Origin: Candidatus Harrisonbacteria bacterium
GTDB taxonomy: Bacteria > Patescibacteriota > Minisyncoccia > UBA6257 > 02-FULL-45-10c
Length of the DNA stretch: 64,000 nucleotides
Reading direction: 5' to 3'
Assembly (NCBI GenBank): GCA_016192685.1
Contig: JACPTS010000001.1
Location: forward strand, 529,099-593,098
Positions 1,123-60,516 of this stretch are shown here, one piece after another. Under the pieces are notes generated by a model. That model was not told the origin of the DNA. It ran no database searches and saw nothing but the letters and a program-made list of their open reading frames with translations. Both the position numbers and the translations under genes were made by a program. Position 1 is the first letter of the stretch. Every line of letters starts with the position of its first letter.

Positions 1123-1194
1123 GGGCAGTTAGTTTAATGGTAAAACGCTGCATTCACATTGCAGAGAGCATAGGTCCGATTCCTATACTGCCCA
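1123..1194 (+). tRNA. tRNA-Val (anticodon CAC)
   Basis: Manual cloverleaf. Acceptor GGGCAGT/ACTGCCC, D-arm GTTT/AAAC, anticodon stem CTGCA/TGCAG with loop TTCACAT, T-arm ATAGG-TCCGATT-CCTAT, discriminator A, no encoded CCA. Confidence 0.7.
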
Positions 1195-2741
1195 CAAGTA
1201 GTAGCTAAATTGAATATGGCGAGTTTACGGGTGCGGGGGTGACACAAGTAGTCCAACGGTTCGTTTAATACCGCTTGGACTATTTGTTTGTCTCTAATAA
1301 CTAATTTTTTAAAAAATGTTTTTGCCAGTAACGCTTTAAGTTCTGGCGAGGCCTTTTTATAGGCATAGTTGCAGTTTGCGGCCAACGCCAAAGCAATTTC
1401 AATTGTTTTTAAAACATTGGCAATTTTACTCTCTGATTTTGCTAATTCCTCGTTGAGTCTCTTTTCCTCGGTTTCTAAATCCACTTTAACGCTTTGAAAA
1501 AGTTCTAAATCGTTTTCGCTGGCTTTATTATCAATAAGTTGCAAAACAAGATTTTTCTTGCGTTGCTTAATACTTTCAATTTTTCCCAAAATGTCGGCAC
1601 GGGCTTTTTCATAAACTCCCTGCTCATCTTTAAATAAAGTTTTAATTCTATTTCTTATTTTTTCAACAAGGTTATTTGGCAATTGCACCACTTTAAGGAT
1701 TTCTGTGAATTGGTTTAAATAATCATTTTCTTGGCCATAGCTTTGATTACAATTAACCCGCTTACTGTGTTGCGATTTTAGGCAACGCAAATATCTAACC
1801 AAATCGCCATTTTTAAGAGTATGTTCCTCCACTGTCATTTTGCTGCCGCACTCACCGCAAAAAGCAATTGTTTTAAGTATTGAAAATAACCTGCGGTTGC
1901 GGCTACCGCCCCCCAGTCGGGCATCAAGTATTGCTTGTGCTTTTTCAAACAACCCCCTGTCCAAAAAAACTTCGTGCTTGCCGTTGGGGTTAATTAAACT
2001 GCCCCAATCAATAACGCCAATATAAAACTTATCCCGAAGCATTTTAGCTAAAAAACTGGTGTGCATTTTGCCGTTATTCTTTTTATGTTTCCGCAATGGG
2101 AACCCCTCTTTTTCTAAAACTTCAGTAAGGGTAGCAATTGAATAATTGCCAGTCGCAAAAAGTTCAAATGCTTTAATAACCCATTTGGCTTCTTGCCAGT
2201 TTATTTCAACCCACGCCCTAACTTTCCCCGTAGCAACTTTTTCCTGAACATTTTTATAGCCGTAAGGGGCTCGTGTAGGCCACCACCCCTCTTTTAATTT
2301 TTGATACATACCAGATTTAACCTTTTCAGCATTTTGCAAAGAAAAAAACTCAGCCACGGAGGATAGCACTCCTTCAAGCATTTGCCCCGAAGGGGTTTTA
2401 TCAGTTCCTTCGGTGGCCGAGCAAATCCTAATGCCGTGCTGTTCAAGGTCTTTTTTTATCAATGCAAAGTCAATGCGGTTACGAGCCAAACGGCTAATAT
2501 CATAAAATATAACCGCTTTAACGGTTTTGTCAGTTCGGCAACGCTCCCAAAGAACCCTAAATTGCGGGCGGTTGGCAGTTCTGGCACTTTCGCCTGCGTC
2601 AGTGTAAATATCCGTTGTTTCATCAACCCCATAGCCGTTTTGCTTGGCATATTCAAGACAACGCTCTTTTTGGGCGGGAATTGATAATCCTTTTTGGGCT
2701 TGGCGGTCAGTGCTAACTCGCAAGTAAATTAACGCCGTCAT
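1134..2741 (-). CDS. Large serine recombinase (integrase) of an integrative element
   Basis: N-terminal resolvase catalytic domain (ALIYLRVSTDRQ with catalytic Ser, IFYDISRLARN), long C-terminal recombinase/zinc-ribbon region (CGECGSKM...C), 535 aa. The 3' end overlaps tRNA-Val in antisense. Confidence 0.85.
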   Translation of the reverse strand: MTALIYLRVSTDRQAQKGLSIPAQKERCLEYAKQNGYGVDETTDIYTDAGESARTANRPQFRVLWERCRTDKTVKAVIFYDISRLARNRIDFALIKKDLEQHGIRICSATEGTDKTPSGQMLEGVLSSVAEFFSLQNAEKVKSGMYQKLKEGWWPTRAPYGYKNVQEKVATGKVRAWVEINWQEAKWVIKAFELFATGNYSIATLTEVLEKEGFPLRKHKKNNGKMHTSFLAKMLRDKFYIGVIDWGSLINPNGKHEVFLDRGLFEKAQAILDARLGGGSRNRRLFSILKTIAFCGECGSKMTVEEHTLKNGDLVRYLRCLKSQHSKRVNCNQSYGQENDYLNQFTEILKVVQLPNNLVEKIRNRIKTLFKDEQGVYEKARADILGKIESIKQRKKNLVLQLIDNKASENDLELFQSVKVDLETEEKRLNEELAKSESKIANVLKTIEIALALAANCNYAYKKASPELKALLAKTFFKKLVIRDKQIVQAVLNEPLDYLCHPRTRKLAIFNLATTCGQYRNRTYALCNVNAAFYH

Positions 2742-2744
2742 AAT

Positions 2745-3233
2745 TTATTTATAACAAACCTCTAATCCATAAAATATTCCGTCTATATTTTTTAGTGATT
2801 TTATGCGAAAAGGGTAGTTAGAATTATTGAGATTACTCGCTGTTCTCAATTTATTTTCTTTCCAATTTTCTCTTTTGGGATACACGCTTATTGCACAGCC
2901 AAGGCCACCAGCATCAATCAAGCGGCCACCTTCGTCATAAAAGATTCCTAATACAAGACCTTCTTTTTCCCATTCTGCCCAACCAACCTCATCTAAGGGA
3001 TAACCCTTGGGTTCTTCGCCACGAAGAGGTGAGCCAATAGCTGTTTTTATTTGAGAAAAGGATTTCCCAAAAAGAGAGGGGATATCAAATATTATTCCTT
3101 GAGTTGGTAATGGTGGTTGAGAATCGCCAGTTGATATAATCACAATAAATAGGATAAACAATGCAGCAAAGGTCATCGCACCAATAGCAAACTTTTTGCT
3201 TGGCCAAGTTTTATTTGAATTTTGTAATTCCAT
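2745..3233 (-). CDS. Hypothetical membrane-anchored protein (island cargo)
   Basis: N-terminal hydrophobic helix FAIGAMTFAALFILFIVIIS. No recognisable domain. Confidence 0.4.
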   Translation of the reverse strand: MELQNSNKTWPSKKFAIGAMTFAALFILFIVIISTGDSQPPLPTQGIIFDIPSLFGKSFSQIKTAIGSPLRGEEPKGYPLDEVGWAEWEKEGLVLGIFYDEGGRLIDAGGLGCAISVYPKRENWKENKLRTASNLNNSNYPFRIKSLKNIDGIFYGLEVCYK

Positions 3234-9449: not shown

Positions 9450-9710
9450 TCCTTTTAAATTTTTATTTTAAATAACCTTTTTAAGGTTATTCTATTTTTA
9501 TGAAAATCACAAGTCTAATCAGGCGAAATTCCAGGGTGTGGATAACCTGCGGATAAAAAAGCCATTTTAGCTTTATTTTTTAGCCTATTTTGGCGCTGGC
9601 TGGCATTGTTAAATTTTTAATCCAAGTGGGGTACAATTAAATGGTAGTGGGGAATTGTGGATAAGTATGGGGATAGAGCGTCAATCAGGGGATAAGTTCC
9701 ACTCGCTGTA

Positions 9711-9842
9711 CCTTTCTTTCTATCGGCACCGGCGTCGCTTCGCTCCAGCGGCGAAGCGCGCCTACGCCTCGCTCCGAAAATTTTCGCTTCGCGAAAAACC
9801 AATCTTTTTGGAGCTCCGTAGTTGCCGTACAAAAGAAAGGTA
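9711..9842 (+). repeat. GC-rich palindromic repeat element, family A, copy 1
   Basis: Core cggcaccggcgtcg...cgcctacgcctcgctccgaaa...ttcgcttcgcgaaa...ggagctccgtagttgccg with terminal inverted repeat acctttct/agaaaggt. Sits at the right edge of the integrative element. Confidence 0.7.
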
Positions 9843-9894
9843 AGCTCGCTAATTGTTGTTAGTTGTGGGTCGTTAGTCATAAGTCATAAGTCAA

Positions 9895-21810: not shown

Positions 21811-23676
21811 ATGAGCAAAATCTTGGGTATAGATTTAGGCACAACTAATTCCGCGATGGCGATTATGGAATCCAGCGGTCCGCGCGTTTTGGAAAACTCG
21901 GAAGGCAATCGCACTACGCCGTCCATCGTAGCATTCTCAAAATCCAAAGAACGTTTGGTTGGTTTGCTTGCCAAACGGCAATCCGTCACTAATCCGCAAA
22001 ATACCATTTATTCGGTAAAGCGGTTTATTGGCCGGAAATTCAGCGATAAAGAAGTCCAGCACGACAAGAAAGTTCTTCCGTATGAAATCCGAGAAGGCGC
22101 TAATAACAGCGTGGAGGTGAAAATGGGCGAGGAATGGCTGAAGCCGGAACAGGTTTCCGCGATGGTGCTTGGAAAATTAAAAACCGACGCCGAAGCCCAG
22201 CTTGGCGAAAAAATTGAAGAAGCGGTGATTACCGTGCCGGCTTATTTTGATGATTCCCAGCGGCAGGCAACCAAAAACGCCGGAGAAATCGCCGGACTGA
22301 AAGTAAAAAGGATTTTAAACGAGCCGACCGCCGCCGCCCTTGCTTATGGCTTGGATAAAAAGAAGAATGAACAAATTGCGGTCTATGATTTTGGCGGCGG
22401 AACTTTTGACGTTTCCGTGCTGGAAGTCGGGGATGACACCGTGGAAGTAAAAGCCACTGGCGGCGACACCCATTTGGGCGGCGATGATTTTGACAAAAAA
22501 ATCGTGGAATATCTGATTACGGAATATAAGAAACAGGAAGGTGTGGATATTTCCAAAGACCCGTTGGCGCTTCAGCGTTTGCGGGAAGCCGCGGAAAAAG
22601 CCAAGCATGAGCTTTCCAGTTCCATGGAAGCGGAAATCAACCTTCCATATATTAGTTCGGACGCATCCGGGCCAAAGCATTTTGTCATGAAGCTTACCAG
22701 GGCAAAATTGGAAAGTTTAGTTCAGGAATTTATTGATAAATCTATTGAACTTGCCCTTAAAACCGTCAAAGACGCGAAATTTGATATAAAAGATATTGAT
22801 GAAGTTATTTTAGTCGGCGGCCAGACCAGAATGCCGGCAATGGCGGAAGCGGTGAAAAAAGCTTTTGGCAAAGAACCGCATAAAGGTGTGAATCCGGATG
22901 AGGTAGTGGCAGTCGGAGCTGCAGTGCAAGCCGGAATCATGCAGGGCGATGTGAAAGATATTTTGCTTTTGGATGTTACCCCGCTTTCGGTTGGTATTGA
23001 AACTTTAGGCGGAGTTTTCACTCGCCTCATTGAAAAAAATACAACCATTCCAACTGCTAAAACCCAAATTTTTTCCACTGCCGCGGACAATCAGACTTCG
23101 GTGGAAATTAATGTGCTTCAGGGAGAGCGGGAAATGGCTGCGGACAATAAAACTTTGGCGCGGTTTATTTTGGATGGAATTCCGCCATCTCCGCGAGGCA
23201 TGCCGCAAGTGGAAGTTACTTTTGACATTGATGCCAATGGAATTTTAAACGTGTCTGCCAAAGACAAAGCCAGCGGCAAAACCCAATCAGTAAAAATTGA
23301 AGCCAGCACCAGCTTATCCAAAGATGAAGTGGAGCGCTTGAAAAACGAAGCGAAAATGCACGAAGCCGAAGACAAGAAAAAGCGGGAACTGGTGGATTTG
23401 AAAAATACCGCCGAAAGCACAGTCTATATGGCAGAGAAAGCGTTGAAAGATATACCAGCTGAGAAAGCGGCAGGCGCTAGTGACGTTATTAAATCTGTTC
23501 AGGAAAAAATAGACGCATTAAAAGGAGTCAAAGACAGCACTAATGTCGAAGCAATTAAAAAAGCTTTAAGTGAACTTTCTCAAGAACTCCAAAAAATCGG
23601 ACAATACATGAATCAGCAAACTGGCGGCCAGCAACCGCCAGCAAGTGAATCGCCGTCAGAAGAAGATAAAAAATAA
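21811..23676 (+). CDS. dnaK: Molecular chaperone DnaK (Hsp70)
   Basis: [17 protein letters not shown], full ATPase and substrate-binding domains. Confidence 0.95.
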
Positions 23677-23679
23677 TTT

Positions 23680-24504
23680 ATGGAAATAATAACAAAGAAA
23701 TTTTATTTAAAGCTTGGTTTATCAGAAAAAGATATTTTAGCTCTTAATAAAGAGCTTTCATTACTCGCTGGACTTAAATTAAGTCCATCTGCCAAACCTC
23801 GTCGTATAGAAATGTTACAAGAGGCCATTCGATGGCCAAAAGGTAAAAATCAAGAAAAAAGGAAAATAACGGAGCTTTATAAATCTGGTGATTTTATAGT
23901 TGCCGTTGGTAAACCAGGAAAAGAAGCGGCGCCAGCTTTCAAACGGAAACATTACATAACTGGCAAGATTACTAATAATCCAAATGACATGAACCCCTTT
24001 GTTATGAGGGGAGGTAAAAAAGTTGGGAATGATTTAACTTTTGCAGAATTATTTGAGCAAATTGAACATTTAATTCGAGCAGATTTACTTGGATTGGAAC
24101 TTTTAGGGATGCTTATATTCAGAATGGCTTTTATGTTAGATCACAAAAAAGATTTAAAGGGGAAATGGAGATATATTCCTCCGGAAAAATCTTTGGCAAT
24201 GCTTAAAAAACGACTCCCTAAAGTTGGCGATATTCCGGTAGATATATTTTTATATTTTCTCGATGTATTAGCTCTCAATGAGGATGTTAAGATGCATACC
24301 TTGGGTCATGAAAATGCTCGATATGATTATGGACGAGTCAATACTTTACTTACCTTTACTCACTTAATTGCAGTTTTATTAAATCGACGCTCTCTAGCAA
24401 AATTTGCTGGTACGTTTGCTCGGCCACCTTCGGGAATGGCTCCACTACCTAAAATAAAAGGACTTTTTGAAACTTATCCTCTTTTATCTCCAGATTTTGT
24501 TTAA
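23680..24504 (+). CDS. Hypothetical protein, possible PD-(D/E)xK nuclease
   Basis: 274 aa. Contains IPVD-x12-EDVK. Its 3' end overlaps the fused LexA-MTase gene by 4 nt in convergent orientation. Confidence 0.3.
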   Translation: MEIITKKFYLKLGLSEKDILALNKELSLLAGLKLSPSAKPRRIEMLQEAIRWPKGKNQEKRKITELYKSGDFIVAVGKPGKEAAPAFKRKHYITGKITNNPNDMNPFVMRGGKKVGNDLTFAELFEQIEHLIRADLLGLELLGMLIFRMAFMLDHKKDLKGKWRYIPPEKSLAMLKKRLPKVGDIPVDIFLYFLDVLALNEDVKMHTLGHENARYDYGRVNTLLTFTHLIAVLLNRRSLAKFAGTFARPPSGMAPLPKIKGLFETYPLLSPDFV

Positions 24505-25967
24505 ATTTTAATCCTTTTTCTTCCCAGAAATAATTTATGTTCTGGAGCAATGAAACCATTTGCGAGGCGTTTGTTTATTATGTCACAGTATTCTTTGTTG
24601 AGCTCGGCCGAAATAAATTGGCGATTTAAATTTCTGCATACATCTATTTCTGCACCACTACCACCAAAGAGAACTAAAACCTTATCTTTTGGCTTAGTTG
24701 ATGATTTAATAAACATTTCAGTTAATTTTTGTGGAATTTGACAAGCGTGAAAAGTTTTTTCTTTGCTGACATTTTTTACAAGATTAAACTCAAACCATGA
24801 GTAAGGCATTCTTCCCTTTGAGCCATTTGCCAGATTTTGACGAATTCTTCTGTCTGTTGGATTTTTATATGGTAACGCTACTGCGTCTTTGAAGAATTTA
24901 TTATCAGCACTTTTACGAACATGAAGTATGCTTCTGTGTGCTGTTGTGAATCTTTTTGGTGTATGTCCGACATTTGTATTATAAACCCAAACATACTCAT
25001 TAATATTAGGAAAATTTATATCTAAGTATTTTACGCGAAGATGTGCATTTTGTTGAGGATAGTTCATCATAAAAAGGTTCCCATCGTTTTTTAGAACTCT
25101 CATTGATTCCTTAGTAAGTTCGGTATACCAATTTAAATAATCGTCAAAATTTCTTGTATAGTTATTACTACCATATCTAATACCGACATTATAATCCGGA
25201 TCCCCAAAAATCATGTCAATGCTATTATTTGGCAGGTCTTTCAAAACATGCATTATATCGCCGTTGTAAACTTTATTGATATATTCAGAAATATTTCCAC
25301 GTTGTTGGGGGCTTTTTTTAGAGGGTAGAATAAATGATTGGTTTAATTGTTTTATCTTATTAGTTTCAATAACATCCAGCATAATTCCTTGAATATGAAA
25401 ATCTTGTCCGCGGCGCACAATTATCGGCTCCATTTTTTTATTTGCCGGTTGTAGACGAACTTGCCCGCGTTCTTTATAGAATTTTTTAAGCGTTGCTCCA
25501 CCATCAACTAAGGCCACAATTTTTTGACCATTTTCAGCAGTGCTTTGGTGGCGCACAAGAATTGTATCGCCATCATTAATATTTTCATCAATCATACTGT
25601 TACCAGCTACTTTTAAAGCGTAAATATTGCTATTGCTGGAATTGGGGAGTTTATTTTTAGGAATCGCTATATTTTCGCTTACAGTATCAAATAGTGTTAA
25701 TGGTTGACCGGCAGCAATAGTGCCCAGTAGGGGAATTTGAACCATTTGTTCATTTTGGTTAGATAATTCAATCCCACGAGAGATGTTATCATTTCGTCGT
25801 AAAAAACCTTTTTCTACAATCGCATCAATATGTTCCAATATCGTTGAGTGCGCGGAGAGGCGAAAATGTTTTTTAATTTCCTCCGTGGTAGGGGAAATAG
25901 ATTGTTTTTTAATAAAATCAGAAACAAAATCGTAAATTTGTTTTTGACGTCTTGTCAGTGTTGCCAT
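24501..25967 (-). CDS. Fusion protein: LexA-type repressor (wHTH plus S24 autopeptidase) fused to a beta-class N4/N6 DNA methyltransferase
   Basis: The N-terminal approximately 200 aa form a complete LexA: wHTH, hinge IPLLGTIAAGQP with the Ala-Gly scissile bond, Ser VAGNSM, Lys ATLKK. The C-terminal approximately 290 aa carry MTase motif IV (IFGDPDYN) ahead of motif I (VLFGGSGAE). Single uninterrupted ORF of 488 aa. Confidence 0.75.
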   Translation of the reverse strand: MATLTRRQKQIYDFVSDFIKKQSISPTTEEIKKHFRLSAHSTILEHIDAIVEKGFLRRNDNISRGIELSNQNEQMVQIPLLGTIAAGQPLTLFDTVSENIAIPKNKLPNSSNSNIYALKVAGNSMIDENINDGDTILVRHQSTAENGQKIVALVDGGATLKKFYKERGQVRLQPANKKMEPIIVRRGQDFHIQGIMLDVIETNKIKQLNQSFILPSKKSPQQRGNISEYINKVYNGDIMHVLKDLPNNSIDMIFGDPDYNVGIRYGSNNYTRNFDDYLNWYTELTKESMRVLKNDGNLFMMNYPQQNAHLRVKYLDINFPNINEYVWVYNTNVGHTPKRFTTAHRSILHVRKSADNKFFKDAVALPYKNPTDRRIRQNLANGSKGRMPYSWFEFNLVKNVSKEKTFHACQIPQKLTEMFIKSSTKPKDKVLVLFGGSGAEIDVCRNLNRQFISAELNKEYCDIINKRLANGFIAPEHKLFLGRKRIKI

Positions 25968-26224
25968 AAGATATTGACTTTCTTAATTCACGCTTCATAT
26001 TAATTATAACCCGACAATTTCCCGACAAGAGGCAAAATTGTGGATAACTTTTCAGTAGTTAAGAATTTGGGAGCATGAAATAAAGAAAAATCCAGATAGG
26101 GTAGTCAATAAAATTATTAAATTTTTGAAATAGAATTTGCTTCTTTTTACGAACTGATTTATACTATTCAGTAATTTAAAAAATAATACGAAAGTAGTAT
26201 TTTCTATTTTAGAAAATAATTTGT

Positions 26225-26677
26225 ATGGCAATTCAAATGGATTTAAAAAAGATTTCGTTGATTCGTATAGAGGGTGCTAAAATACTATTAGATAAAGGAG
26301 ATTATCAAGGTTCTGCATATATGATGGGTCTTGCTCTAGAGTGCGCCTTAAAGGCAACTGTATGCAAAACTCTTAGAATACCCACCTATCCCGAAGATTA
26401 TAATGCCGATAAAAAAGTTCCCGACTTTTTTATGACGCATTCTTTTGTTAGACTATTATTAGTATCTGGTTTAACAGATATATTTAGTGCAAGTAGCAAT
26501 AACGTTAAAGCTTTCGATAACTGGTCCTTTTTTACGATTCAATATCCGGGTGAATGGGTGAGTATGCGCTATAGATTAGATCAGTTTGAACAAGATTTAA
26601 CAGAGGAGTTATATCAATGTTTATATTTTGATGAGAATAGCATTATTAAAGTCATTGAATATCAAAATAGATGGTAG
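26225..26677 (+). CDS. HEPN-like small protein (AT-rich accessory gene)
   Basis: N-terminal helix pattern AKILLDKGDYQGSAYMMGLALECALKA, typical of the HEPN fold. No clear Rx4-6H motif. Confidence 0.35.
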   Translation: MAIQMDLKKISLIRIEGAKILLDKGDYQGSAYMMGLALECALKATVCKTLRIPTYPEDYNADKKVPDFFMTHSFVRLLLVSGLTDIFSASSNNVKAFDNWSFFTIQYPGEWVSMRYRLDQFEQDLTEELYQCLYFDENSIIKVIEYQNRW

Positions 26678-27066
26678 ATAAACTTAAAAAAATATTAAGC
26701 AAAATGAAATCAGATGGAAAACCAGTCTGGCTATTTGCTTTTTTAAAAATGGATGAAATTATAGATAAATGGTCTTTAGTTATTTCTGCGCCTTGGATAA
26801 ATGAACAAAATCGTGATCAAGAATTTGAATATATTATCAATTTGTTAAAAGAAAATCTTAATGGCGAAGAATTATCTTCAATAGCTCGTATTAGTGTTTT
26901 GGCTAAAGATAGTCATTTAAGTCAAGAATTAATGAAGAAAAAAACAGGTGATTTAATAAAGGAAGAACAAATAAATGGCAACATTATTCACGAAGGTCAA
27001 ATATTGGAATCAAGCGTTGAGGCGCAGTGGCCATCAAATAATTTATTTGCTAAACAATCAAGTTAA
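26671..27066 (+). CDS. Hypothetical protein (overlapping partner of the HEPN-like gene)
   Basis: 131 aa. Overlaps the upstream gene by 7 nt. AT-rich. Confidence 0.3.
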   Translation: MVDKLKKILSKMKSDGKPVWLFAFLKMDEIIDKWSLVISAPWINEQNRDQEFEYIINLLKENLNGEELSSIARISVLAKDSHLSQELMKKKTGDLIKEEQINGNIIHEGQILESSVEAQWPSNNLFAKQSS

Positions 27067-31792: not shown

Positions 31793-32773
31793 ATGGAACC
31801 TTCAATTAATCCATCATTAGAAACCGCCAACATTGATATTTCTAAATGGAAAATAGCAGTGGTTTGGGCGGCCGGGCTTATTTCCGCTTTAGCTTTCGGC
31901 TATTTTTTGCGGTTGTTTTTAGGCGGCGGAAATCAATTGATGGTCTTAACTGCAGCTCTGGTCTTATTTTTGATTGTTTTTGTTTTACAGACTTTATTTT
32001 TGAAGGGCGGTAAGATTGTCTATTCGCTGGCGGCTTTAGAAAGCGGCGGCCTAATGATTTTTTTCCTGGATTATTTTTCTTGGTATTGGTTGGCGGCTTT
32101 AGCGGCCTTGCTCGGTTTTTTCTGGCTGGCAGTGTATCGCGGCCGGGCAGAAATAGACGACCAAATGAAAGTCCATTTTCCCCGGATTGAAAAAAAAGTG
32201 CTGGCGCAAGTTTTTACCGGAATTTCTTTGCTTATCAGCTTAATGTACGTGGAAATTGCCGGTTTGGGGAATTTAGGCATTACCCAAAAGCAGATTGATA
32301 ATCTTTTGCGGCCGGCCGAGCCGATAGTTCAGAATCTTTTAATTGGTAATTTTTCTTTTAATATGACGGTTTATCAGTTTGTGGAAGCGAGTATGGTTAA
32401 TCAGTTAGCGGGGCAGCTGGGCGTGCCGATTAATGCGGTTCCGGCGGCAGCGAAATCAGCGGCGATTAATCAAAGCTTAAATGCTCTTCAGGGACAGGCG
32501 GCTGGCTACGGGATAAATTTCCGGAACAGCGACACTATCAGCCAGGTGGTTTATAATTATCTGGTAGGACAGATTAAAAAAATTCCATCCGGATTCCGAT
32601 TCGCGGTTCCGGCCGGAGTAGCGCTGATTGTTTTTTTGACGGTTAGGGGATTAGGAACGATTATCCGTTGGTTAGTTTCGGTTCCGGCTTATTTGGTTTA
32701 TGAGCTGTTGCTGCTGACAGGATTCGCGCGGTTAAGTTTGGAATCAAGAAGCAGGGAAATAATTATCTTATGA
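31793..32773 (+). CDS. Membrane protein co-transcribed with dnaJ
   Basis: Multi-TM. 326 aa. Stop overlaps the dnaJ start. Confidence 0.4.
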
Positions 32774-33849
32774 GTAAGGATTACTACAAAATTTTAGGCG
32801 TGGAAAAAAGCGCCAATGAAGAAGAGATTAAAAAAGCATACCGGAAGCTGGCGCATAAATATCATCCGGATAAATCCGGCGGGGATGAAAAGAAATTTAA
32901 AGAAATAAATGAGGCGTATCAGATTTTATCGGATAAAAATAAGCGGACGCAATATGACCGGTTTGGCAATGCGTTTGAGGGCGGGCAAGGATTTGGCGGT
33001 TTTGATTTTTCCGGCGGCCAAGACGGTTATAATTTTGGTTTTGGCTTTGACCCTTCCAATATGGAAGATTTGTCTAATGTCAGTGATATTTTTGACGCTT
33101 TTTTTGAAGGTTTAGGTGTTAAGCGGAAGCGGAAAACCTATCATCGCGGCGCGGATTTAGAAATGGCAAAAGAAATTACTTTGGAAGAGGCGTTTCGTGG
33201 CAGCGCCGCCAAGATTCAGGTGGAAACTTTTGTTAGTTGCGCTGTTTGTGCCGGAATAGGGTATTTTTCAAAAGATGGAGTTACTAAATGCGCTACTTGC
33301 GACGGCCGGGGAGAAATTCGGGAAACCCGGCAGAGTTTTTTCGGCCAATTTTCCCAGGTGCGGACTTGCGGGAAATGCCATGGCCAAGGCGAAATCCCCA
33401 ATAAAGTTTGTAAGAATTGTTCCGGCGGCCGGGTAAAAGCAGTTAGGGAAGTTCAGATAACTTTGGCGCCGGGAATTGCCGACGGCCAACTGATTAAAGT
33501 TGCGGGCGCCGGACAAGCCGGCGAGCAGGGCGCCGGCGCCGGCGACCTTTACGTTCGGATTAAAATCAAGCCGCACCATACTTTTAAGCGGGTTGGCGAT
33601 GATTTATTGGCCAGAAAAGATTTGGATATTTTGTCCGTGCTTGCCGGCAGGAAAATTGAAATTCCGACTTTGTCCGGCGGTAAAGTGATGGTGGAAATTC
33701 CGATTGGCTTTAATTTGCGCGAGCGATTGCGGATTGCCGGCGAGGGGATGCCAAAATTCGGCGGCTACGGCAGAGGGGATTTATACGTAGAATTCGACGT
33801 TAAAGTTCCAAAGATTGATCAGAAATTGAAAAAGTTTTTTGAGGAATAG
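32770..33849 (+). CDS. dnaJ: Chaperone DnaJ
   Basis: J-domain with HPD (KYHPDKS), G/F region, 4 CxxCxGxG zinc repeats. Confidence 0.9.
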
Positions 33850-37350: not shown

Positions 37351-38397
37351 ATGAGTCTTAGCGTTTCTAAATTAACAATTCATTTATTGGAAAGCCTTGA
37401 CCAGAGGCAAAGAGAAGTTTTGGAGGGCCGGTATGGGCTCAAAGACGGCCATCCGAAAACCTTGGCTGAAATAGGCGATGCTAATCGGGTCACCAGAGAA
37501 CGGATTCGCCAAATAGAATCCGCGGCTTTGGCGGCTGTTAAAAAGTCAGCCGGCAAAACTCAACTTAGAGAGTTCGTGACAACGGTTAATTCCCATTTGC
37601 GGAATTTAGGCGGCTTGCGGCGCGACCTTCTGCTTTTGACTGACCTTCGGGCGATGGTTGGCGACCCCAATACCTCCAATTTAGGCAATAAGATTCATTT
37701 TCTTTTAGAGGTAGCCGGCGAAACTAAATTACATCCGGAAGACGGCGACTATTATTCTTACTGGCATTTAACCGAGGAAGACCGGAAAAGAGCCGGAGGA
37801 TTTCTCGGCAAACTGGTTAAATTGATGGAAGCTCGGAAACAAGAAGTGGTTTCCCATGGCACCATTGATTCCCTTTTTAAGGAAGCCATCGCGCCGCATA
37901 ACTTAAAAGATTTGGTGGCGTTAAACTACATTTCTGCTTCCAAAAATTTCCATGTCAACGAATATGGCGATTTCGGACTTTCTGGTTGGCCGGAAATTAA
38001 TCCTAGAACTATGCGGGATTGGGCGCATATTGTTCTGCGGAAACAGCAAAAACCGGCCCATTTCCAGGAAATCGCGAAAATGATTAATAAGGTCAGAAAG
38101 AATTCGCAAAAGTTTGCCCATCCCCAGACGGTTCATAATGAATTGATTAAAGACCAGCGTTTTGTTTTGGTAGGCAGGGGAATCTACGGATTGCAGGAGT
38201 TTGGTCTGATGCCCGGCACGGCTAAAGAGGTAATGGGCAGAATAATGGAAAAACACGGCCCTTTATCGCCAAAACAATTATTAGAGCTAGTTTTAAAAGA
38301 AAGAATGTTTAAAAAGAACACTATTCTAATCAATCTCCAGAATAAAAAGCACTTTCAGCGATTGGAAGACGGACGTTATACGATTAATTTGGTTTAA
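37351..38397 (+). CDS. Sigma-70 region-4 HTH domain protein
   Basis: N-terminus LDQRQREVLEGRYGL...[24 protein letters not shown] is sigma-70 region 4. 348 aa. Confidence 0.6.
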   Translation: MSLSVSKLTIHLLESLDQRQREVLEGRYGLKDGHPKTLAEIGDANRVTRERIRQIESAALAAVKKSAGKTQLREFVTTVNSHLRNLGGLRRDLLLLTDLRAMVGDPNTSNLGNKIHFLLEVAGETKLHPEDGDYYSYWHLTEEDRKRAGGFLGKLVKLMEARKQEVVSHGTIDSLFKEAIAPHNLKDLVALNYISASKNFHVNEYGDFGLSGWPEINPRTMRDWAHIVLRKQQKPAHFQEIAKMINKVRKNSQKFAHPQTVHNELIKDQRFVLVGRGIYGLQEFGLMPGTAKEVMGRIMEKHGPLSPKQLLELVLKERMFKKNTILINLQNKKHFQRLEDGRYTINLV

Positions 38398-39752: not shown

Positions 39753-41339
39753 ATGCTTAAAAAAGAAATAATAAACCATTTTGGAATAACTAATTTTAGG
39801 AATCACAAGCAGGTATTTGGAATTAAGATAGAGGACCGCCGCCGGCATGTTTATGCGATTGGAAAAACCGGGTCGGGAAAAACTAATCTTTTAGAAACTA
39901 TGGCAATTGCCGATATTTTAGCCGGCAATGGAATGGCTTTTATAGATCCTCACGGAGACTCTGCTGAAAGGCTGCTGGATTTTATTCCGGAAAATCGCAT
40001 TAAAGACGTGATTTATTTTGACCCTTCTGACATGAATTTCCCCATTGCCTTTAATCCTTTGGAGCAAGTTGGAACAGAATATCGCCATTTAGTGGCATCT
40101 GGAATTATGGGAGTTTTTAAGAAAATCTGGGTGGATATGTGGTCAGCGCGGATGGAGTATATTTTAAACAATACTTTGCTCGCGCTTTTGGAATATCCCG
40201 AATCAACCTTGCTTGGCATTATGAGAATGCTGAATGATAAAGATTACCGGAAAAAAGTAGTGGACAATTTAAAAGACCCGGTAGTTAAAGGATTTTGGGT
40301 TAATGAATTCGCGAAATACAGCCAAAAATTTGAAACTGAGGCAACGGCTGCCATTCAGAACAAGGTTGGCCAGTTTGTCACTAATCCTTTAATCCGGAAT
40401 ATTTTAGGTCAGCCAAGGTCTTCTTTGGATATGCGCAGGGTAATGGATGAGGGCAAGATTTTAATTGTAAATTTATCTAAAGGCAAAATTGGAGAAGATA
40501 ATTCCGCGCTTTTGGGCGCGATGATAATTACCAAGCTTCAACTTGCGGCAATGTCCCGGGTGGATGTTCCGGAAAGCGAGCGTCAGGATTTTTACCTTTA
40601 TGTGGATGAATTCCAGAATTTTGCCACTGATTCTTTCGCGAGTATTCTTGCCGAGGCAAGAAAATATCATCTTTGTCTGATTTTAGCCCATCAATATATA
40701 TCTCAATTAATTCATGCCACTACTACTAAAGTTCGGGATGCGGTTTTTGGCAATGTTGGAACATTGTTGGCTTTCCGGGTTGGCGCGGAAGACGCGGAGT
40801 TTTTGGAAAAAGAATTTCAGCCGGATTTTATGGCGACTGACTTTGTTAATCTGCCTAAATATAATTTTTACATTAAATTGATGATTGATGGAATTTCTTC
40901 CCGCCCTTTTTCCGCTTCCGGCATTCCTCCTTTAAAACCGCTGGAGAAAAATTTTAAAAATGAAATTATTGAAAATAGCAGAAGGGAATATGGAAGGCCT
41001 CGGGAAATTGTTGAAAAGAAAATAGACCGAGATTGGCTGGCTGGAGGAGAAGTTATGGTTGAAGAAAAAATTTTCCGCCGGGCCGAACGCCCGCTTTCTC
41101 AGGTTTTAAAGCCGAAAGACGCGGGAGAAGAGCGATTTTTTGCTCCGAAGCCTCGGTCTTCGGCTGGTTCGCCTCCGGCGGAAAAACCGTCAATTCCGAT
41201 AGCCGAGTCCCGTCCGGATTTTCACAGGGAACCGCCGGCAGTTCCGGAAAGAAGTAAAAAGAAAGTGGCGATTGATGAACTGCGAGCGGCTTTAGAAAAG
41301 TCTTTGGCCGGCTCTCGAAGAAAGAATGATGAAGAATAA
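39753..41339 (+). CDS. FtsK/HerA/TraD-superfamily P-loop ATPase (T4SS coupling-protein-like)
   Basis: Walker A GKTGSGKT, Walker B LYVDEFQNF. 528 aa. Confidence 0.55.
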   Translation: MLKKEIINHFGITNFRNHKQVFGIKIEDRRRHVYAIGKTGSGKTNLLETMAIADILAGNGMAFIDPHGDSAERLLDFIPENRIKDVIYFDPSDMNFPIAFNPLEQVGTEYRHLVASGIMGVFKKIWVDMWSARMEYILNNTLLALLEYPESTLLGIMRMLNDKDYRKKVVDNLKDPVVKGFWVNEFAKYSQKFETEATAAIQNKVGQFVTNPLIRNILGQPRSSLDMRRVMDEGKILIVNLSKGKIGEDNSALLGAMIITKLQLAAMSRVDVPESERQDFYLYVDEFQNFATDSFASILAEARKYHLCLILAHQYISQLIHATTTKVRDAVFGNVGTLLAFRVGAEDAEFLEKEFQPDFMATDFVNLPKYNFYIKLMIDGISSRPFSASGIPPLKPLEKNFKNEIIENSRREYGRPREIVEKKIDRDWLAGGEVMVEEKIFRRAERPLSQVLKPKDAGEERFFAPKPRSSAGSPPAEKPSIPIAESRPDFHREPPAVPERSKKKVAIDELRAALEKSLAGSRRKNDEE

Positions 41340-59295: not shown

Positions 59296-60516
59296 ATGTT
59301 ATACTTAAAAGTGTTGAGCTTCCAAAAAATAAGAGAGTTTATTATCCGTTTATTCACCAAAAGCGATTCTTATTTATTGGTTGAAATTTTGAATCATTAC
59401 GTTCAAATTACCCTTTTTAGAGTTTATCCGGACGAAAAACTGATTTTCATAAAAAAATCCTGGATTAAGGAAGTGCCGGATTTTACTGCCTATAATATTC
59501 TTCAGGCGTTCAGTTTCCTTTTAAAGAAAGCCGGCAATCCGAACAAATATAAAATAATTTTAAGTTTGGATTCGTTTTTTGCCACCACTATTTATTCATC
59601 GGTGGCTTTAGTGCGCCCCCGCCCCAAGGAAATCATTGATGAGGCGGATATGGATAATTTGATTTCTCAGGCAATCTGGAGATTTTTTGACCGGCAGCGC
59701 CTGAAAGCCGCCAAAAAAATGGGTATTGATGATGTGGATGTGATTTTAAGCGATGTCCGGATCCGTGGCATTAAATTAGACGGCCACAAAATTATTAATC
59801 CCATCGGCTTTAAGGCTAAGGCGGTAGAAATATTTTTTAGCCAAACTTTTTTACCTAGGGAATTGCTGCGGGGCATCCGCGATTTTTTGCCGAAAGGAAA
59901 TATCGCGCTTATCACCGAAACCGGAACCGCGATGAGCCATATCCTTTCCAAAGCTCTGGGCCAAGACCGATTTTTGGTAGCCAATCTTTTTCCGGACCAA
60001 ACCGCGATTTTTTCCGCGTCCGCCGGGCGGCTCAGCCATCTGGATGATTTTGAATGGGGAGAAAAAGATTTAATTCATTTGCTCGGGCGTCATTTACAGG
60101 TTGACCCGGCCGCCGCCCGGCTTTTAGTTAAAAATTACGCCGACCGCAACGCTTCCGAAGGATTTCTCCGCCGGTTTGAAAATATTCTCTTTAAAGAATT
60201 GCAGATTTTTGCCAATGGACTGGAATCTTTAGTTCCGGAAGATAACAATCAAGTTTATCTGAATCCCTTTTTTACCCTTCCGCCGGTAGTTTTTTCGGAT
60301 AGATTCCAGAACCGGCTGCAAAAAAATCTGACCTTGCTGCCGTTATCCACAAATTTAATTACCGAAAAGCTCGGTTATGAGGTACAATTTAAAAAATCAG
60401 CCTCCGTGAAAAATCTTTGGACCGTTTTAGCCGCCTTTCTGGAGATAAATTTCCTGCCGCAAAATGATAAAATGAGCCATTTGGCTAATAGAAGAGTGAG
60501 GTGGCTGGTAACTTAA
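59296..60516 (+). CDS. Hypothetical protein
   Basis: 406 aa, no recognised motifs. Confidence 0.35.
   Translation: MLYLKVLSFQKIREFIIRLFTKSDSYLLVEILNHYVQITLFRVYPDEKLIFIKKSWIKEVPDFTAYNILQAFSFLLKKAGNPNKYKIILSLDSFFATTIYSSVALVRPRPKEIIDEADMDNLISQAIWRFFDRQRLKAAKKMGIDDVDVILSDVRIRGIKLDGHKIINPIGFKAKAVEIFFSQTFLPRELLRGIRDFLPKGNIALITETGTAMSHILSKALGQDRFLVANLFPDQTAIFSASAGRLSHLDDFEWGEKDLIHLLGRHLQVDPAAARLLVKNYADRNASEGFLRRFENILFKELQIFANGLESLVPEDNNQVYLNPFFTLPPVVFSDRFQNRLQKNLTLLPLSTNLITEKLGYEVQFKKSASVKNLWTVLAAFLEINFLPQNDKMSHLANRRVRWLVT

Follow-up and report, generated by a model that had tools for sequence, protein, structure and literature searches.

What does a LexA-type repressor do when it is part of a DNA methyltransferase? 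This question is raised by a gene at positions 24501..25967 (minus strand) of a 64-kb stretch of DNA from a bacterium of the candidate phyla radiation (CPR); this whole stretch, and not the fusion gene alone, is called the window below. The gene encodes a protein of 488 amino acids (aa), in which a winged helix-turn-helix (wHTH) domain, a Peptidase S24 domain and a linker precede a beta-class N6/N4 DNA methyltransferase (MTase). Judged from its sequence and from those of its relatives, the protein truly joins a complete LexA-type module, apparently competent for cleavage, and a beta-class amino-MTase in one polypeptide. We consider it highly probable that it serves as a restriction-modification (R-M) methylase with a LexA-type autoregulatory module, and its most likely role is the local control of an R-M module and not a rewiring of the SOS response.

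The LexA-methyltransferase fusion protein

The open reading frame (ORF) is continuous over its full length, as a sequence-only reading of this DNA had claimed, and the motifs quoted there (LLGTIAAGQP, VAGNSM, ATLKKF, and DPDY before FGGSG) were all found in frame. The three Pfam models proposed in that reading as a check matched as well. LexA_DNA_bind covered residues 1-65 (25773..25967, E 1.7e-13), a segment that includes the recognition helix region with SAHSTILEHIDAI. Peptidase_S24 covered residues 79-196 (25380..25733, E 4.8e-29), and N6_N4_Mtase covered residues 250-466 (E 1.9e-36) of an MTase domain that spans residues ~226-479 (24531..25292) and also has matches in the PDB and PADLOC. 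These features, like those given next, lie on the minus strand. By alignment to the LexA cleavage site, autocleavage is predicted at the Ala86-Gly87 bond (LLGTIAA/GQP, 25707..25712), and a cut at this predicted site would, as had been anticipated, split the wHTH from the remaining protein. The S24 catalytic dyad is, by sequence, formed by Ser124 (VAGNSM, nt 25596-25598) and Lys161 (ATLKKF, nt 25485-25487). In the MTase domain, motif IV (DPDY, residues 256-259, nt 25191-25202) comes before motif I (FGGSG, residues 434-438, nt 24654-24668), which is the motif order of the beta class.

Comparison with solved structures and curated models gave the same picture for both halves. The first 200 residues aligned end to end with Thermotoga and E. 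coli LexA, T. maritima LexA (3k2z) being matched at 6e-33 in the PDB search, and A86-G87, S124 and K161 of the fusion line up with E. coli and T. maritima LexA. In addition, residues 1-202 passed the lexA equivalog model TIGR00498 of NCBIfam with 180.6 bits (cutoff 110.95). The MTase half matched M.BceJIV (8urk) at 1.5e-26 and also aligned to the structures of MboIIA, CcrM and RsrI, while PADLOC MTase_II (PDLC03337) matched it with an E value of 1.5e-117. In an alignment of 47 family members, A86, G87, S124, K161 and DPDY were invariant, as were F434, G436, S437 and G438 of the FGGSG motif (G435 was conserved in at least 90%). Within the fusion family the wHTH (46% mean pairwise identity) and the linker (44%) are the two fastest-evolving segments; S24 stands at 69%, and the MTase, at 85%, is the most conserved part. 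In the AlphaFold (AF2) model the LexA part was confident, with a predicted local distance difference test score (pLDDT) of about 80-90 in S24; the methylase core was moderately confident, and the target-recognition region was of low confidence. The variable linker between S24 and MTase (residues ~201-228, 25284..25367) is predicted to be disordered from its low identity and its low pLDDT, which was below 50 at residues 203-222 with block means of 30-40.

That two genes were merely joined by an assembly or frameshift artefact has a negligible probability. Nothing was found in favour of an artefact, and the comparative data rule it out. The best 120 of 3,621 database matches came from many independent assemblies, and each was a full-length protein (~480-510 aa) in which the three domains recurred; about 36 genome loci carried the same uninterrupted fusion ORF in a scan of a genome collection, and a Logan assembly held a 100% identical copy (P0001). 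The database search for this architecture, which the sequence-only reading had proposed, was thus answered in the positive. Its remark that no such fusion was described fared less evenly: a full-text search found no published description of a LexA-MTase fusion, but the fusion is not a rarity, since hundreds of CPR sequences share the design. The search did not cover the work of Sanchez-Osuna, Barbe and Erill (2017, Environ Microbiol 19:3465), which reportedly deals with the SOS network of Patescibacteria and could mention such fusions. In the genome-collection scan the full fusion was almost confined to CPR-type metagenome-assembled genomes, and its relatives were labelled Patescibacteria, Woesebacteria, Yanofskybacteria, Falkowbacteria, Kerfeldbacteria and Paceibacterota. 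The proteins themselves are labelled either 'transcriptional repressor LexA', by the Prokaryotic Genome Annotation Pipeline (PGAP), or 'DNA methylase'.

The fusion promoter and the SOS question

A LexA-box-like palindrome had been expected upstream of the gene (about 25968-26100). None was present between the start codon and the DnaA box described below, and a tandem direct repeat was found there instead. The minus strand upstream of the start codon includes aagTTATCCACAattttgcctcTTGTCGGGaaaTTGTCGGGtTATAATtaatatg. This region holds the repeat TTGTCGGG-aaa-TTGTCGGG, a putative operator with a period of 11 (26010..26028, minus strand), and directly downstream of it a TATAAT hexamer (26003..26008, minus strand) that reads as a -10-like element. 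A repeat finder confirmed the 8-bp direct repeat with 11-bp spacing, which occurs once in the window. The hexamer had been missed by a consensus promoter scan, because no good -35 element lies at 16-18 nt from it. A perfect DnaA-box 9-mer, TTATCCACA (26039..26047, minus strand), has its centre some 47 nt ahead of the point where transcription probably begins. The only inverted repeats upstream of the fusion are AT-rich and near the divergent gene, and the palindromic SOS box GAAC-N4-GTTC is absent throughout the window.

The same plan was seen in 33 fusion promoters: a DnaA box, then two elements of 6-8 bp at an 11-bp period, then TATAAT or TATACT. In nearly every fusion promoter the period-11 repeat abuts the -10, and in six loci two such repeat units, inverted relative to each other, flank it. 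The sequence of the repeat, which fits (G/T)TTC-N7-(G/T)TTC across loci, varies by locus in step with the recognition helix of the wHTH. The helix STILEH of the window goes with TTGTCGGG, STAH(F/Y)H with TTTCTAT, ST(V/I)HQH with TTTCGGT, STIHYH with TTTCGAT, ATVHKH with TTTCGCT, STAHEH with TGCTCGG, and GTVQEH with CTACGG. In each locus scanned, the operator was essentially confined to the fusion's own promoter; L018, L021 and L023 each had one extra match with one substitution elsewhere in the locus. A fast-drifting wHTH that changes along with a single operator fits a private autoregulator, not a master regulator with many targets. From these sequence comparisons the LexA module looks like such a private autoregulator and not like an SOS master repressor.

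The DnaA box is the second conserved element, and the sequence-only reading had overlooked it, as it had the partner gene described in the next section. A perfect box (TGTGGATAA or TTATCCACA) was found in 26 of the 33 fusion promoters and a one-mismatch box in 4 more, and none of 39 promoters of unfused modules had a perfect one. The fusion loci, 228 kb in total, contained 33 perfect boxes, of which about 29 were in the fusion promoter. The window contains 4 copies of TTATCCACA, with 0.33 expected. Two of these (9537 and 9656) lie together with the one-mismatch boxes TTATCCGCA, TTATCCCCA and CTTATCCCC at 9450-9894, a 445-bp intergenic gap before mraZ (9895) of the mraZ-rsmH-PBP-Mur cell-division cluster. 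With copies clustered upstream of mraZ, the motif behaves like a genuine DnaA-binding element of this genome. Not far from the cluster, at about 4-6 kb, the cumulative GC skew reaches its minimum; the cluster could be oriC or a DnaA-regulated dcw promoter. The fourth perfect copy (60343-60351, plus strand) falls within an ORF without a Pfam match (59296-60516) and may be either a chance occurrence or an intragenic DnaA site. The 9-mer was also considered as the target of the R-M system and was ruled out: it lacks a palindromic sub-site, is found in either orientation, and forms a separate cluster like an ordinary DnaA-binding region. A DnaA input to the fusion promoter is likely on this sequence pattern, and the position of the box in a promoter without a good -35 would fit activation by DnaA.

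These promoter data bear on whether the fusion could be the genuine and only SOS master repressor of its host, such that damage would switch the SOS regulon and methylation together. The lexA equivalog model that the protein passes, the PGAP label on family members and the lack of a second LexA within the window all speak for this. In addition, two loci read GTTC-N7-GTTC, which resembles the direct-repeat SOS box of alphaproteobacterial LexA and serves as a lead only. We nevertheless regard it as improbable that the fusion is the SOS master, because a regulator of many promoters could hardly tolerate an operator that shifts between loci with the recognition helix. The operator occurs once in 64 kb and elsewhere essentially at the own promoter, bar the three one-substitution matches; the gene is found in variable, island-like contexts; and, as described below, the same LexA clade is joined to methylases of four or more classes, all of them in R-M pairs. 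No regulon of DNA-repair genes sharing a conserved SOS box was seen in the window and the fetched loci, and no recA or uvr genes are present in the window.

A further point against an SOS master comes from one host (L085) with a separate 189-aa LexA-like gene (1834-2900, minus strand) in a two-gene operon 1 kb from the fusion. This gene has the Ala-Gly, Ser and Lys residues, and its promoter contains a GAAC-N4-GTTC palindrome between -35 and -10 with a near-DnaA box, TTATCCCCA, just upstream. That host thus has a conventional LexA too, although it is the sole such case among 90 fetched loci and therefore anecdotal. CPR lexA promoters may carry DnaA boxes in general, and a chromosomal lexA may have been the origin of the fusion cassette. 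Altogether, the fusion is probably not the SOS repressor of its host. Of the initial description as an SOS repressor carrying an MTase, the complete LexA-type module has held up, while the evidence is for a mobile Type II R-M methylase with a LexA-type control module. The label 'transcriptional repressor LexA' is misleading in this light and could distort reconstructions of SOS regulons in Patescibacteria.

The probable restriction-modification module and its relatives

Neighbour genes were clustered over 83 loci with fused or unfused methylases, and nearly every methylase had a partner from one of three families: c0 (~210 aa, 39 loci), c1 (~275 aa, 19 loci including the window) or c2 (~258 aa, 12 loci). 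In the window the partner is a convergent c1 gene of 274 aa (23680..24504, plus strand), a putative restriction endonuclease gene that overlaps the fusion stop by 4 nt. Each of the 30-odd fusion loci had such a convergent c0 or c1 gene abutting or overlapping the methylase stop, whereas in unfused systems the partner was mostly upstream and in the same direction. Some unfused systems additionally had a divergent HTH_3 C-protein-like gene; no separate small Xre-type controller gene adjoins the module of the window. The c2 family matched Pfam DUF6996/DUF6997 and PADLOC REase_II (3e-15). Families c0 and c1 matched no curated family, the c1 partner having no match in Pfam, NCBIfam, PADLOC, PHROGs or PDB and its family no recognisable nuclease fold. 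Profile-profile comparison gave a weak relationship between c0 and c1 (hhalign E 2.4e-4), with PGK, D-hydrophobic and (N/Q)ED motifs in common. No operator copy was found before the partner gene in any fusion locus scanned, and a site that would control the nuclease gene too, as in SsoII-like systems, was not found, the genes being convergent and not divergent. The partner gene of the window begins 4 nt past the dnaK stop (23676-23680), which leaves no space for a promoter of its own, and it may be transcribed by read-through from the hrcA-grpE-dnaK heat-shock operon.

The methylase half also occurs by itself. In the genome-collection scan, a stand-alone methylase matching residues ~222-487 only was found at 60-69% identity in diverse Bacteria and Archaea, including Melioribacteraceae, Zixibacteria, Nitrospinota, Anaerolineae, Gammaproteobacteria, Halobacteriota and Altiarchaeota. 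So wide an occurrence at high identity is what R-M genes that move horizontally typically show. No fusion was detected either in a plasmid collection, where the named relatives were YhdJ-type genes at about 30% identity only, or in a phage collection, which held one unfused methylase relative. This gene of Thermus phage phiLo (MH673673.1, 16818-17600), annotated as 'putative DNA methylase' and 62% identical to the methylase half, is the sole record from a cultured organism that is closely related to that half. Palindrome depletion was tried as a guide to the recognition site and rejected: the depletion of GATC, TCGA and GGCC is generic and not assignable to this system. GATC was observed 67 times in the window (188 expected) and 265 times in the fusion loci (672 expected), and TCGA and GGCC were also depleted in both. 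Such depletion suggests that several 4-bp-cutter R-M systems exert pressure on these CPR genomes.

The conservation of the methylase bears on the idea, put forward in the sequence-only reading, that the MTase is targeted to LexA-box sites. A DNA-binding domain and a catalytic domain are physically fused here, and the wHTH might in principle tether the methylase to particular DNA sites and direct local or epigenetic methylation near operators. We found no support for such targeting and hold it to be very improbable. There is essentially one operator per locus, at the own promoter, and the specificity of the wHTH drifts freely while the MTase does not; the MTase is a conventional R-M enzyme that, at 85% identity, is the most conserved part of the fusion and functions unfused in many phyla.

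The LexA half alone was searched against 1.84 billion cluster representatives. Its nearest relatives (42-60% identity) were nearly all long proteins (348-841 aa) that begin with the LexA module; LexAs of the ordinary size (~200 aa) appeared lower, at 42-47% identity, and dominated after about rank 60. All of the 46 long proteins had a wHTH and an S24 domain with invariant Ala-Gly, Ser and Lys. Their C-terminal halves belonged to N6_N4 (31), Eco57I (6), N6_Mtase (4), D12/Dam-type (5) and C5-cytosine (3) methylases, with MmeI- and TaqI-type parts also among them, and at least four unrelated MTase classes are fused to this LexA clade. The family of LexA-C5-methylases comprised more than 120 clusters, again from Patescibacteria. 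In 9 of 9 LexA-C5 loci a convergent partner abutted the stop; it was RE_Bsp6I in three and PDDEXK_5, preceded by an HTH_3 C-protein, in one, while the other loci had unannotated partners of 274-328 aa, with a Vsr in addition in one locus. For eight of these loci the promoter DNA was available: it had a perfect DnaA box in 5 of 8 cases and a one-mismatch box at the same place in the other 3, and all 8 had a TTCGGT-type repeat of 11-bp period against the -10. Since the LexA-C5 loci share the promoter cassette, the whole cassette travels with the LexA module whatever methylase follows. We tentatively propose, as a joint reading that we hold to be possible though somewhat short of probable, that CPR bacteria evolved a portable control cassette (DnaA box, tandem operator and self-cleaving LexA) that was grafted onto many unrelated Type II methylases, and that the partner of the window is a restriction endonuclease with a fold not yet in the PDB. 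If this is true, methylase supply would answer both to RecA activated by breaks, including those of self-restriction, and to DnaA as a measure of replication status.

Variants of the fusion raise a different possibility. Within the N6_N4 family the fusions fill one half of the methylase tree, and three variants are nested inside this fusion clade. In one locus (L032, 3806-5397) the methylase is unfused, and 30 nt upstream of it lies a separate LexA-like gene whose product has a Cys-Gly site, Ser and Lys. In two others (L033, 3926-5083; L036, 3998-5080) the wHTH is fused straight to the methylase, without S24. The LexA module might thus only bind DNA and dimerise, with S24 deaf to activated RecA and without any link to damage, in which case the protein would be an SsoII-like HTH-methylase with a bigger handle. 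The fusions without S24 favour this, the more so as L036 retains the same promoter with DnaA box and repeat, and the C-terminal domain of LexA is known as its dimerisation domain. Against it stands the conservation of Ala-Gly, Ser and Lys, which all 47 family members and the 46 other-class fusions (42-60% identity) share without exception and which dimerising alone would not require; the separate LexA-like protein of L032 likewise keeps a Cys-Gly, Ser and Lys. We therefore rate a role as mere dimeriser as unlikely, and a self-cleaving controller remains the reading that we pursue below.

The genomic surroundings of the window's module were also inspected. It follows directly after hrcA-grpE-dnaK, dnaJ (32770-33849) lies about 9 kb further on, and the layout looks like an island inserted between dnaK and dnaJ. 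The downstream ORF proved 100% identical to a hypothetical protein from a Candidatus Harrisonbacteria metagenome-assembled genome. The G+C content is 0.34-0.36 at 24-30 kb and 0.40-0.45 in the flanks, a lowering that would be expected for an acquired island. Flanking genes were different in every homologous locus, which marks the unit as a small mobile cassette. Divergent to the fusion is a pair of genes (26225-27066, plus strand) that overlap by 7 nt and encode 150 aa and then 131 aa. The 150-aa gene has weak matches to HEPN (Pfam E 0.003) and PADLOC PDC-M28A (3e-4), the 131-aa gene is unannotated, and the pair may be a toxin-antitoxin or defence pair beside the R-M module. In the promoter region of this pair there are AT-rich inverted repeats (26165-26218), among them the perfect TATTTTCTA/TAGAAAATA. 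Elsewhere in the window, a large serine recombinase with Resolvase, Recombinase and Zn ribbon domains (1134-2741, minus strand) and a VirD4/TraG-type coupling protein (39753-41339, plus strand; a sigma-70 region 4/HARE-HTH protein is nearby at 37351-38397) are signs of integrated mobile elements.

A proposed control loop and its place among known systems

How might such a module work? We lean, without strong conviction, towards the following reading: the fusion is the methylase of a mobile two-gene Type II R-M module, its N-terminal LexA is its own transcriptional controller, and a damage-induced rise in methylase protects the chromosome. The protective loop taken by itself we see as evenly balanced. 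In this model, judged from the co-variation of helix and repeat, an S24-mediated dimer would place two wHTH domains on the 11-bp-period repeat (26010-26028) and repress the own promoter, so that the methylase level would be self-limited as in HTH-methylases of the SsoII and EcoRII type. RecA filaments on single-stranded DNA would then, by homology to LexA, trigger S24 to cut Ala86-Gly87; these filaments could stem from DNA damage or from the module's nuclease, when it makes double-strand breaks at sites that are under-methylated. Cleaved E. coli LexA exposes a degradation signal for ClpXP. Cleavage of the fusion would free the wHTH with a new ...IAA C-terminus resembling this degron, the promoter would be de-repressed, and more methylase would be made. 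A disordered linker of ~25 residues separates the domains, and for this reason the S24-linker-MTase product should remain active as an enzyme. The outcome would be a feedback loop, in which self-restriction activates RecA and activated RecA raises the methylase, as a Type II analogue of restriction alleviation; the DnaA box would add a second input, presumably replication status.

Published work on R-M systems gives this model some background. As reviewed in PMC3874152, the SOS response is induced by Type II R-M activity that is out of balance and by post-segregational killing, R-M systems act as addiction modules resembling toxin-antitoxin systems, and some methylases (EcoRII, SsoII, Ecl18kI and ScrFI) bind to their own promoter. 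Since unbalanced R-M induces SOS, LexA wiring on the methylase would close a feedback loop.

Several points weigh against this model. The HTH-only variants (L033 and L036) mean that S24 is dispensable for the role of the wHTH, and S24 could be mainly a dimeriser. The comparison of helices with repeats ignores kinship between the loci. Motif IV, though invariant in the family, is DPDY and not DPPY: the 47 family members have Asp in place of the second Pro of the canonical (D/N/S)PP(Y/F/W), a motif type that most other LexA-N6_N4 fusions possess. Finally, Lon degrades the C-terminal domain of LexA, and if the S24-MTase fragment met the same fate, the effect would be reversed.

This last point leads to a damage-triggered suicide or abortive infection, in which the cleaved S24-MTase is degraded, methylation drops, and a stable nuclease kills the damaged or phage-infected cell. 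Both fragments of E. coli LexA are degraded after cleavage, and the locus adjoins the HEPN-like gene pair in surroundings that resemble a defence island; the addiction behaviour of R-M systems (PMC3874152) would suit such a function as well. Nonetheless, cleavage also removes the repressor, so that synthesis of new methylase should rise simultaneously, and the disordered linker suggests that the MTase domain is independent of S24. We consider the suicide function a poor bet for these reasons and return to the protective loop as the working model.

R-M systems are known to keep their nuclease and methylase in balance by means of C-proteins, antisense RNAs or methylases that bind to their own promoter. 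If the protective loop is true, it would be a new principle, in which a methylase gene senses damage by its partner nuclease, or DNA and replication stress, and makes more protection. The portable cassette proposed above would, if real, provide the first instance of R-M being regulated through SOS-type proteolysis that acts on the methylase, and a closed-loop safeguard against autoimmunity in organisms that depend heavily on R-M defence. To our knowledge, CPR bacteria have tiny genomes and few CRISPR systems. The recurrence of the design across at least four methylase classes and hundreds of CPR lineages suggests that it matters for living with one's own defence systems. In addition, the family offers a natural set of orthogonal LexA-type repressor/operator pairs for studies of wHTH specificity and for synthetic biology, a candidate case of DnaA as a transcription factor in CPR bacteria, and a source of nuclease candidates without a recognisable fold.

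Of the known proteins, M.BceJIV (8urk; GTWWAC m6A) and the YhdJ-type beta-class methylases are the nearest solved or named relatives of the catalytic half; unlike the fusion with its DPDY, these are orphan enzymes with DPPY and without a LexA module. In E. coli, Type I restriction is alleviated after DNA damage through the degradation of HsdR by ClpXP. The proposed purpose of the fusion, to protect the chromosome from the cell's own restriction at unmodified sites that arise through DNA damage or repair, is the same, but here it would be a Type II methylase that is induced through self-cleavage of a repressor, and not a nuclease subunit that is proteolysed. C-proteins regulate Type II R-M systems such as PvuII, BamHI and Esp1396I. 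They resemble the fusion in that a dedicated DNA-binding regulator sets the timing and balance of methylase and nuclease in a mobile R-M cassette, and relatives of the fusion module carry HTH_3 C-like genes. They differ in that the regulator of the fusion is covalently part of the methylase, is of the LexA/S24 and not of the Xre type, and appears to control the methylase and not the nuclease.

With LexA itself (TIGR00498; 1jhh, 3jso, 3k2z) the fusion shares domain order, equivalog model, the Ala-Gly and Ser/Lys residues and a putative operator over its own promoter. In contrast to LexA, it carries a methylase of 260 aa and has a locus-specific, hypervariable operator with no evidence of a regulon, and at least one fusion host has a separate, conventional LexA-like gene. 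With SsoII, Ecl18kI, EcoRII, MspI and ScrFIA (PMC3874152) it shares an N-terminal DNA-binding domain on the methylase, a two-gene Type II organization and an operator in the methylase promoter, binding to which is suggested here by the co-variation. In place of their simple HTH it has a complete LexA of wHTH and S24 with an intact cleavage site, which offers potential for a signal-dependent, irreversible release. Its operator is a tandem direct repeat in a cassette with a DnaA box, its hosts are CPR bacteria, and it gives no sign of co-regulating the nuclease gene. In function, then, the fusion is closest to the self-repressing SsoII/EcoRII/MspI/ScrFIA methylases and to C-protein control, with a bona fide member of the LexA family as its N-terminal half.

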